Made by a program: the position numbers and the translations under genes | Notes under the pieces: generated by a model | The model's input: the letters and a program-made list of their open reading frames with translations, nothing else | The model's database searches: none | What the model was told of the DNA's origin: nothing | Shown here: one piece after another, positions 28,569 through 29,558 of the stretch | How the letters are laid out: every line of letters begins with the position of its first letter | Position numbering within the stretch: position 1 is the stretch's first letter | Assembly: GCA_964425145.1 (NCBI GenBank) | Contig: CAYRLQ010000002.1 | Coordinates: forward strand, 1-41,867 | Reading direction: 5' to 3' | From: an uncultured Nitrospiraceae bacterium | GTDB lineage: Bacteria > Hydrogenedentota > Hydrogenedentia > Hydrogenedentales > SLHB01 | Length of the DNA stretch: 41,867 nucleotides

Positions 28569-29558
28569 GTGGACGCTTTGGAGATTTCAGCAGAAAGTTG
28601 GGAGCTTATAGGTCGGTATTTTGGCGCAGCTATCGCCCTGGGGCTTGGCGGCATAGGTGCGTCCGTGGGTATGGGCATTGCCGCGGGTAAGGCGAACGAA
28701 GGTATCATGCGTCAGCCCACGCGGCAGGGCTATATGCTTCGGACTATGCTTATCGGCCAGGCGGTCGGGGGCAGTCCATCAATCTTTGCGCTCGTTATCG
28801 GCCTGTTGATCCTGCTCGTGCCCGGAGTGGGGCCTGGCGCCCAGGGCGGCAAACTTGTCGCGGCACTTATCGGGGCGGGCTTGTCCATCGGGTTCGGGAG
28901 CTTTGGCAGCGGGATTGGCTGTGGTTGGCCCGGCGGGGCGGCGTGCGACGGCGTGGCACGCAACCCGCGCCAGGTGACCCCGGTCACCTCATCGATGATC
29001 ATCGGCCAGGCCGTGACCCAATCCCCGAGTATCTTCGCCGCGGTCGTCTCCCTGTTGTTGATGTTCTATCGCCTTCCCGGCACAGGTTGGGGCGCTGTGG
29101 GCATTGCGATAGGGGCCGGTCTTGCCGTGGGAATAGGCGGGCTTGTGCCGGGTATAGGGTCGGGTTGGGCTGCCGGCGGCGCCTTGAACGGCATGGGCCG
29201 CTGGCCAGGGTCCAGGGCTGTGACGCTGCGTGTAATGCTTGTCGGTCAGGCGGTGTGCCAGACCCCGGCCATTTTCGGCATGCTGGTCGCGTTTATGATG
29301 ATGTTTGCACTGCGGGACCTCGAGGGCAATGTGGTCGGTTTTGCCAAGACCATGGGCGCTGGTTTGTCTGTGGGGCTGGGCGGGATCGGTCCCGGTCTCG
29401 GCAGTGGTTTGGCGGGGGAGAGCGGGTGTCAGGTGACGGCGGCGCGCCCCGGCATCAATGCGGTGGTCCTGCGGACCATGCTTGTAGGTCAGGCCGTTTC
29501 TCAGTCGACCGCCATATACAGCTTGGTCATCGCGCTGGCCATTTTGTTCGTTATGTAG
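28569..29558 (+). CDS. Quadruplicated (four-hairpin, ~8 TMH) c-subunit-like proteolipid lacking the ion-binding carboxylate in all four hairpins
   Basis: Four tandem ATP-synt_C-like units (approx 28608-28820, 28848-29069, 29085-29312, 29331-29555). Each has a Gly-rich helix 1, a polar loop (RQP/RNPRQ/RWPG/ARPG) and helix 2 'GQAV-x-[G/Q]-S/T-P/T'. GTG start; an in-frame TTG at 28578 with AGGTGGA upstream is an alternative. Confidence 0.8.

Follow-up and report, generated by a model that had tools for sequence, protein, structure and literature searches.

A four-hairpin F-type ATP synthase subunit c without coupling carboxylates in Hydrogenedentota, and its probable place in the rotor ring

The DNA analysed here (the window) is a stretch of 41,867 nucleotides from an uncultured bacterium of the Hydrogenedentota (assembly GCA_964425145.1, contig CAYRLQ010000002.1) and carries an F1Fo ATP synthase operon. 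Between the genes for subunit a (atpB) and a canonical one-hairpin subunit c we found a gene for a fused subunit c of four hairpins, called c4 in the following (28569-29558, + strand, GTG start, 329 amino acids). By its domain c4 is an ATP-synt_C homologue, and it is without the functional hallmark of the family, the coupling carboxylate. It resembles the hybrid-rotor c subunits and is extreme in hairpin number and in the complete loss of ion sites. Based on the analogy with A. woodii c1, c4 is probably a subunit of the rotor ring, in which case it would be an extended, independently evolved analogue of c1. In every ATP synthase the central bioenergetic quantity is the ion/ATP ratio, and it is set by how many ion sites there are per turn of the rotor.

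A preliminary description, made from the letters of the window, had read the open reading frame (ORF) as four copies of the c-subunit hairpin and had proposed a search with PF00137. This search gave four matching stretches of Pfam ATP-synt_C (E 7.1e-47, 157.9 bits against a cut-off of 24), and TIGR01260 scored 96.5 against a cut-off of 43.95. A custom hidden Markov model (HMM) of the hairpin placed the copies at residues 12-86, 95-169, 174-251 and 254-330, numbered in the stop-to-stop frame that starts one codon 5' of the GTG, and agreed with the nucleotide ranges proposed earlier. The four hairpins, all on the + strand, are:

28605..28826, +, c4 hairpin 1 (about residues 13-86): Met35 in helix 1, loop MRQP, and Gly68 at the Glu position, in a helix-2 block of 14 residues
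28845..29072, +, c4 hairpin 2 (about residues 93-168): Cys118 in helix 1, loop ARNP, and Gln151 in a helix-2 block of 14 residues
29085..29318, +, c4 hairpin 3 (about residues 173-250): Ser198 in helix 1, loop GRWP, and Gln231 in a helix-2 block of 14 residues
29325..29555, +, c4 hairpin 4 (about residues 253-329): Ser279 in helix 1, loop AARP, and Gln312 in a helix-2 block of 14 residues

The core of the four hairpins and of the canonical c encoded downstream was aligned with MAFFT without a single gap, and the register of c4 is therefore not in doubt. The same register was obtained from phmmer alignments to the solved c subunits of A. woodii, I. tartaricus and F. nucleatum. At the coupling position (E65 of I. 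tartaricus, E87 of the canonical c) c4 has G68 (28770-28772), Q151 (29019-29021), Q231 (29259-29261) and Q312 (29502-29504). At the helix-1 position (equivalent to Q32 of I. tartaricus, E54 of the canonical c) it has M35, C118, S198 and S279. In the gapless alignment with the canonical and solved c subunits none of the four hairpins has the helix-2 coupling carboxylate. Both methods thus gave the residues that had been named for the two positions at the outset, and an error of register, which had been raised as a way in which the claim might fail, did not appear against any of the three solved proteins. The Asp and Glu residues that c4 still has are found in the N-terminal tail, the loops and the linkers, together with E284; this last one is not conserved, being the majority residue and yet present in less than half of 105 aligned orthologues. 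In all four hairpins helix 1 is rich in Gly and the loop has a motif of the R-x-P type, and across the orthologues these residues vary hardly or not at all.

A database gene call for this protein (P0001, 295 amino acids) begins at Met35 and loses helix 1 of the first hairpin (the stretch concerned is window 28569-28671). The N-termini of the orthologues are conserved (xxW-E-x-I-G-R-Y), which supports the GTG at 28569 as the start of c4. In all seven Hydrogenedentota-type loci, the window included, the first in-frame start is GTG or TTG, but three of the seven also have an in-frame ATG ten codons into the gene, and a conserved GTG start is thus only partly upheld.

The AlphaFold2 model of c4, computed with 40 orthologues, consists of eight long helices, as had been expected (predicted local distance difference test, pLDDT, 93.4; predicted template modelling score, pTM, 0.89). 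In three of the four outer helices there is a one-residue break at the site position. The top match of the model in a Foldseek search of the PDB was 4bem_J, which is A. woodii c1 from a crystal structure of the ring; two adjacent hairpins of c4 are superposed on it with a root mean square deviation of 1.6 Å over 155 columns and 37% identity. E. hirae NtpK and eukaryotic V-type c subunits followed, the V/A-type proteolipids having TM-scores of 0.57-0.86 when normalised to the target. In the same search no solved chain was found that spans more than half of the model.

The loss of the hallmark residue is the one point that could speak for c4 as a decaying tandem duplication or an assembly artefact without function. 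Tandem Repeats Finder reported no array in the c4 gene. The hairpin-coding segments are identical at 47-58% of their bases and at 26-41% of third codon positions, at which the repeats are saturated. A protein 100% identical to c4 over all 329 residues is encoded on an independent metagenome contig (L010). A word-indexed protein search gave at least 120 matches to c4, nearly all of about 325 amino acids and 60-94% identical among the matches listed; the few listed ones that carry an organism name belong to Candidatus Hydrogenedentota or Hydrogenedentes. In total more than 100 intact orthologues were found, and the 105 near-full-length ones (318-340 amino acids) were those aligned. Scanning genome contigs with the c4 protein alone gave five loci, all in metagenome-assembled genomes (MAGs) of Hydrogenedentota, and the whole gene order is kept on five Hydrogenedentota MAG contigs plus one contig of 2 Mb. 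The ORF is uninterrupted in each of the seven loci that were checked at the DNA level. The ratio of nonsynonymous to synonymous substitution rates (dN/dS, Nei-Gojobori) was 0.012 for c4, 0.015 for the canonical c and 0.028 for subunit a in the L003-L004 pair (dS 0.86), which is the sole unsaturated pair and does not contain the window sequence; the other pairs gave 0.03-0.25 with saturated dS.

Decay or artefact is refuted by the dN/dS values (0.012-0.25, as low as on c and a), by the third-position saturation and by the identical protein on the independent contig, and the intact ORFs and the 105 orthologues speak against it as well; we give this explanation practically no chance. From these comparisons of sequences c4 is judged to be an old duplication under purifying selection. 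The preliminary description had said so from the divergence of the repeats, and the search for syntenic homologues and the dN/dS analysis that it had recommended returned a conserved gene order, low ratios and, in the seven loci checked at the DNA level, none of the frameshifts or stops that would have spoken for decay. A separate proposal, in which c4 would be a doubled (Glu,Gln) two-hairpin unit, was not supported: hairpins 1 and 3 share 37% of their residues and hairpins 2 and 4 share 38%, like the other pairs.

M35, C118, Q151 and Q312 never vary within the 105 orthologues and S198 is kept in 99% of them; each hairpin therefore has a fixed identity of its own. In helix 1 of hairpin 2, G117-C118-G119 and P121 are also invariant. 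Position 68 in hairpin 1 is G in 85% and S in 14% of the orthologues, and the coupling position of hairpin 3 is Q in 64%, E in 32% and D in 3%. Absence of any coupling carboxylate thus holds for the window and about two thirds of the orthologues, and the original claim does not extend to the third or so that have Glu or Asp in hairpin 3. In a neighbour-joining tree the Glu and Gln forms of hairpin 3 fall into largely separate clades, with about seven changes. A pattern with Glu in both hairpins 1 and 3 (EQEQ) is rare (L023 2995-3946, L024 392-1343); such a two-site state may have come first, with the one-site and zero-site forms of c4 derived from it, and given these rare forms a stepwise loss of carboxylates is plausible. 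The c4 of the window belongs to the zero-site majority of a family with zero, one and occasionally two carboxylates.

The one-hairpin c encoded next to c4 has Glu54 (29777-29779) in GPGVGEGF, and Glu87 (29876-29878), Ser88, Thr89 and Tyr92 in a second block of 10 residues. In phmmer alignments it matches the F. nucleatum subunit (3zk1) residue for residue at Glu32, Glu65, Ser66, Thr67 and Tyr70, and it was also aligned to I. tartaricus (1yce). Judged by these residues, it has the two-carboxylate Na+ motif of the F. nucleatum type and is predicted to bind Na+. The partner c proteins that were read, those of the window, L006, L007, L008 and L009, have GPG[IV]GEGF and, wherever they are complete, the second block of 10 residues too. 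Among the 73 loci with at least 450 nt downstream of the multi-hairpin gene, every one has a one-hairpin c with the coupling Glu directly 3' of it (none is without it), and in all 73 the multi-hairpin gene sits between atpB and this c. The position of c4 between atpB and a canonical atpE, noted from the window, thus holds for all these loci, and the atpE is of the Na+ type in the five partner proteins that were read. The canonical c of the window starts with ATG behind a purine-rich, Shine-Dalgarno-like stretch, and ATG with a purine-rich stretch upstream was found for the partner c in all seven Hydrogenedentota-type loci. The GTG or TTG start of c4 against the ATG of c weakly fits a lower copy number of c4.

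As a further observation, the canonical c of Hydrogenedentota (102-106 amino acids) is lengthened at its N-terminus by about 25-30 conserved residues (M-D/E-x-S-T-hydrophobic...; window 29618-29710), and this extension is missing in the partner c proteins of 82-83 amino acids in the operons with five-hairpin (L009) and six-hairpin (L006) subunits. An additional periplasmic or amphipathic segment would be one explanation for the extension, and a leader that is processed another.

The residues around the lost sites bear on how c4 might be used. A Na+ site in E. hirae NtpK and I. tartaricus is built from two successive hairpins: carbonyl 63, Ser/Thr66, Thr67 and Tyr70 come from the outer helix of the first, Glu65 and Gln32 from the second. 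If c4 stood in a ring before a free c, only its last hairpin would therefore need those ligands. Among 314 non-redundant proteins of 2-6 hairpins with at least one silent hairpin, 248 have Thr67 and Tyr70 in the last hairpin, and 686 of the 866 internal hairpins of the same proteins have Pro67/Phe70. Q312, S313, T314 and Y317 of c4 are invariant in 40 aligned orthologues. A. woodii c1, which is a ring subunit, has independently acquired the same half-site pattern (ETS..F, then QTT..Y). The simpler rule that Thr67 and Tyr70 are kept whenever the next hairpin is active was rejected, as internal hairpins are found without them even before an internal Glu. The half-site pattern is specific and hard for a non-rotor role to explain, and we regard it as indirect evidence for the ring. 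Membership of c4 in the ring would also be supported by selection that appears as strong on c4 as on c and a, by the gene slot between atpB and a one-hairpin c that is never missing, and by the confident model with its match to A. woodii c1.

In the ring, c4 would co-assemble with copies of the one-hairpin Na+-binding c to form a mixed c-ring, following the precedent of A. woodii, in which the two-hairpin c1 shares the ring with c2/c3. The host enzyme would be a Na+-coupled F1Fo ATPase/synthase. To this ring c4 would add four neighbouring hairpins that could not carry ions, because Gly or Gln replaces Glu and there is no partner carboxylate; with n copies of c, the ring would thus have n+4 hairpins but only n Na+ sites. 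Through the outer helix of its last hairpin (QSTAIY) c4 would still lend Ser, Thr and Tyr as ligands to the Na+ site of the next free c, so that no seam would be left on this side of the ring.

A protein without ion sites can do no coupling work, and c4 might instead stay outside the mature rotor, as an assembly template or nucleus for the curvature and size of the ring, as a plug, or as a stator-side accessory at the interface of ring and subunit a. Each hairpin has invariant surface residues of its own, such as G117-C118-G119 and P121, which would suit such a role, and Na+ F-ATP synthases need a dedicated assembly factor, AtpI, which is encoded here too (PMC7911925). Yet the invariant Ser/Thr/Tyr half-site of the last hairpin is sensible only beside an active c site, and by our estimate eight helices are too large for the lumen of an 11-hairpin ring. 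Moreover the nearest characterised analogue, A. woodii c1 (4bem), is a ring subunit. All four cytoplasmic loops of c4 have an R-x-P type motif, and in E. coli the Arg41-Gln42-Pro43 loop contacts the central stalk. We consider a place outside the rotor unlikely.

Much less probable still is that the Gln sites of c4 are active, Na+ being held by Gln, Ser/Thr and backbone oxygens without a carboxylate in a ring that would be fully active. It is true that Gln is invariant in hairpins 2 and 4, that Ser/Thr66 is kept in all hairpins, and that neutral Na+ sites occur in other membrane transporters. Against it, a bound Na+ that lacks a counter-charge would bring a net positive charge into the lipid and past the stator arginine; in hairpin 1 the position is taken by Gly or Ser, and the internal hairpins are without Thr67, Tyr70 and the Gln/Glu32 partner. 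In C. aceticum c1 the Gln hairpin, with a Q....QT motif like that of A. woodii, is described as binding neither H+ nor Na+ (PMC7911925).

If c4 is taken as a ring subunit, the mechanics of the rotor can be estimated. The A. woodii ring has 11 hairpins (PMC7594442). In an assumed ring of this size four contiguous silent hairpins would span about 131 degrees, which is more than the 120-degree step of F1, and about 164 degrees would separate successive active sites across the silent arc. ATP-driven rotation would cross the arc easily but would idle for a third of each turn; Na+-driven synthesis would need about 130 degrees of rotation without ion input. Four contiguous silent hairpins are thus hard to reconcile with ion-driven ATP synthesis, and since synthesis would have to cross these 130 degrees unaided and ATP-driven rotation would not be hindered, it is easier to imagine the enzyme pumping Na+ at the expense of ATP, or acting as a synthase only when the phosphorylation potential is low. 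As the contiguous arc is larger than one F1 step, the benefit of a lower ion/ATP ratio also becomes mechanically questionable. The preliminary description had proposed that c4 is built into a hybrid ring and lowers the ratio to give V-type-like gearing; of this, the place in the ring is indirectly supported by the half-site pattern and by what is known of A. woodii c1, and the V-type-like gearing does not simply follow, the silent hairpins being contiguous.

In A. woodii and C. aceticum a lower Na+/ATP ratio is read as an adaptation to life at low energy (PMC7911925), and an enzyme with a half-silent V-type ring synthesises ATP at about 90 mV (PMC9171764). According to a Hydrogenedentota genome catalogue, V/A-type ATPases occur in 71% and FoF1 in 61% of the genomes, often both, together with Na+-NQR or Rnf (PMC11406978). 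The presence of both ATPases leaves room for either a pump or a synthase role. A special case of the ring subunit, which seems to us rather unlikely, is that the silent arc is purposeful and makes the enzyme a one-way, ATP-driven Na+ extrusion pump or gives it a resting position. The Na+ gradient would turn the rotor until the silent arc faces subunit a, and the stop would block back-flow of Na+. This fits the contiguous silent hairpins in every family seen, the Na+/glutamate symporter gene adjoining the operon, and a possible division of labour between V/A-type and FoF1 enzymes beside Na+-NQR or Rnf. On the other hand, idling for a third of each turn wastes ATP, and half-silent V-type enzymes do synthesise ATP at low driving force (PMC9171764). 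With V/A-type enzymes in 71% of the catalogued genomes, some genomes apparently have FoF1 only and would need it for synthesis, a point clouded by genome incompleteness.

Several points weigh against c4 as a ring subunit in general. Its membership in the ring is argued by analogy. In a ratchet picture synthesis would stall at the silent arc, and pumping would waste an estimated third or so of the ATP. A single E56Q change in the fused c10 ring of Bacillus PS3 abolishes ATP synthesis (PMC8809890), and F-type rings thus do not as a rule tolerate silent positions. Gln, and not just any neutral residue, is invariant in hairpins 2 and 4, which hints at a role beyond being inert. Finally, the lineage of the window has lost even the site that many orthologues kept, a loss for which a selective advantage is hard to see.

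The complete F1Fo operon occupies 27161-36041 (+) in the window and has the classical gene order, as identified with Pfam:

27161..27397, +, atpZ-like small membrane protein (ATPase_gene1), first gene of the operon (PF09527, E 5.9e-11)
27385..27771, +, atpI (ATP-synt_I; PF03899, E 1.1e-05, 26.2 bits against a cut-off of 25.1)
27790..28545, +, atpB, Fo subunit a (PF00119, E 6.9e-43)
28569..29558, +, c4, four-hairpin fused c, 329 amino acids, eight transmembrane helices, no coupling carboxylate (ATP-synt_C, four stretches)
29618..29935, +, canonical one-hairpin subunit c, 105 amino acids (PF00137, E 2.3e-17)
29960-30391, +, peripheral stalk b' (PF00430)
30388-31137, +, peripheral stalk b (PF00430)
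31134-31685, +, delta (OSCP)
31687-33210, +, alpha (ATP-synt_ab)
33358-34212, +, gamma (ATP-synt)
34225-35622, +, beta (ATP-synt_ab)
35625-36041, +, epsilon (ATP-synt_DE_N plus ATP-synt_DE)

The atpZ-like gene keeps the same slot in L001, L003-L006, L008 and L009. AtpI is a c-ring assembly factor in other Na+ F-ATP synthases (PMC7911925). The stator arginine of subunit a is Arg194 (codon 28369-28371) within SISFRLFGN. The F1 set of delta, alpha, gamma, beta and epsilon is complete (31134..36041, +), and its order is kept in L001-L004, L008 and L009 as far as the contigs extend. The flanks of the operon are ordinary and include a class A penicillin-binding protein, a TrkA-N potassium channel (TrkA-N/ion-channel protein, 25871-26875, +, just 5' of the operon) and a Na+/glutamate symporter of the GltS family (36596-37969, -, just 3' of it). 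The symporter and the ion-channel protein weakly fit a Na+-based membrane economy. Elsewhere in the window an ORF of 1459 amino acids with FG-GAP repeats (8151-12530, +) probably encodes a large secreted or surface protein and is unrelated to c4.

c4 is not singular, as the preliminary description could make it appear: it is one of a very large family of carboxylate-poor c proteins with 2-6 hairpins. A HMMER search of 1.84 billion cluster representatives gave 1065 matches at E <=0.001, and a metagenome scan gave 490 relatives of c4, of which 80 loci were retrieved. Scoring of the best 150 of the 1065 matches with the hairpin HMM showed two-hairpin EQ and QQ, three-hairpin EQQ, EQE and SQQ, four-hairpin EQQQ, EQED and SQQQ, and five-hairpin EQQQQ patterns, one six-hairpin QEEEEE, and longer all-Glu forms of up to 15 hairpins in Asgard archaea; for some long proteins the hairpin counts differ by one or two between two HMM runs. 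A six-hairpin EQQQQQ form (P0010) came from the word-indexed search. In every family seen the silent hairpins are contiguous (GQQQ, SQQQ, EQQQ, EQQQQ, EQQQQQ).

The five-hairpin c5 (EQQQQ; L009 8001-9221, GCA_942491525.1) and the six-hairpin c6 (EQQQQQ; L006 1543-2994) occupy the same operon slot as c4. c4, c5 and c6 have corresponding last hairpins (QSTAIY) and corresponding inner ones (Q[ST]P[ASV]IF). Hairpins 4 and 5 of c6 are 61% identical; therefore the number of hairpins in the family is still changing, and the similarity suggests a continuing, recent internal duplication in c6. The c4 'EQQQ', c5, c6 and c3 SQQ relatives share with c4 the gene slot, the two-carboxylate partner c and these last and inner hairpins. 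Most of them keep a complete site in hairpin 1 (Glu32 plus Glu65), whereas the Hydrogenedentota-type c4 has lost it (Met35, Gly/Ser68) and retains no more than an isolated Glu or Asp, in hairpin 3.

A second abundant family of four-hairpin c proteins, about 45% identical to c4, was seen among the 80 retrieved loci, in marine and sediment metagenomes (L043-L089, e.g. L054 3022-3970 and L064 3082-4030). Its pattern is ESGN/EQQQ: hairpin 1 has the complete two-carboxylate site and the three hairpins after it have Gln. A one-hairpin c always comes next. In addition there are single chains of about 7-15 c hairpins, all with Glu (P0146, 1139 amino acids; P0286, 1147; P0203, 784; P0259, 968; P0176; P0209), and P0146 and P0286 carry the names of Promethearchaeota and Hodarchaeota (Asgard) MAGs. 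Going by sequence, such chains would be whole or nearly whole rotor rings in one polypeptide, beyond the 13 hairpins of Methanopyrus.

It is possible, though we put it forward tentatively, that there are natural F-type rotors with an arc of three to five consecutive ion-less hairpins, and that these are common in uncultured anaerobic and marine bacteria. The known exceptions to one site per hairpin have at least one site per subunit and silent positions that are evenly spread; c4 has no site and four silent positions side by side. Should c4 be part of the ring, one third of the rotor would be without ions, and either synthesis crosses the silent arc, which models of torque generation do not predict, or the enzyme represents a new class of one-way Na+ pump or of parking position. 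With one unique subunit per ring the silent arc would stand at a fixed phase against one of the three catalytic sites. Such a ring would be a natural test of how Fo passes torque-less positions and of an asymmetric rotor phase-locked to F1. As c proteins of 2-6 hairpins are all annotated just as "subunit c", ion/ATP ratios deduced from metagenomes, for example for Hydrogenedentota, may be wrong.

We found no description of the carboxylate-poor c family with 2-6 hairpins. Our full-text literature search, which does not fully exclude a prior mention, found no four-hairpin or site-less F-type c, in line with the preliminary description. In the overview by Litty and Muller (2022) the c subunits listed have 1, 2, 3 or 13 hairpins and no other number (PMC9171764). 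In the passages of the Hydrogenedentota genome catalogue that were searched c4 is not mentioned (PMC11406978), and a 2026 paper cites the 2015 hybrid-rotor review of Brandt and Muller only for "multiple atpE copies".

Compared with known systems, c4 shares with the V/A-type proteolipids (E. hirae NtpK, eukaryotic c/c'/c'', archaeal c of 2, 3 or 13 hairpins) that the fused hairpins outnumber the carboxylates. In V-type rings silent and active helices alternate, and to our knowledge each of the V/A-type multi-hairpin proteolipids retains at least one carboxylate. They are the accepted precedent for a lower ion/ATP ratio (PMC9171764). Assignment of c4 itself to the V/A-type proteolipids was rejected (NF004913 86.5 against a cut-off of 211, NF011483 58.3 against 188), and the operon is F-type with delta, b/b' and epsilon. 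An N-ATPase subunit c was likewise rejected, with TIGR03322 at 113.8 against a cut-off of 130.85, delta/OSCP present and the classical gene order; N-ATPase operons have atpQ/atpR and no delta. Engineered fused c-rings of Bacillus PS3 and E. coli resemble c4 in their linked hairpins and Glu-to-Gln changes at set positions, but they are artificial and proton-coupled, whereas the natural c4 family has three or four such positions in a row, and conserved.

The closest known system is that of A. woodii, where c1 (AtpE1; PDB 4BEM) is the best match of c4 in both sequence and structure. Like c4, c1 and its C. aceticum counterpart are fused c subunits of an F-type operon, encoded directly 5' of a one-hairpin Na+-binding c, and A. 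woodii atpE1 presumably lies directly 3' of atpB. The operon of C. aceticum is structured as in A. woodii, with the locus tag of the two-hairpin atpE1 directly before that of atpE2 (PMC7911925). In A. woodii c1, as in c4, Gln replaces Glu in the silent hairpin (QAVAQTTGIY), the last hairpin has Thr/Thr/Tyr and the inner one Phe70. A strict c1 of the A. woodii type was rejected for c4 on two counts: c1 has two hairpins and one Na+ site against four hairpins and no site in the window, and common descent was not found. Each hairpin of A. woodii c1 shares 73% of its residues with A. woodii c2 but only 29-43% with the hairpins of c4, and the fusions therefore arose independently. The partner c of c4 has the Glu32/Glu65 pair of the F. 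nucleatum type, in comparison to Gln32/Glu65 in the A. woodii type.

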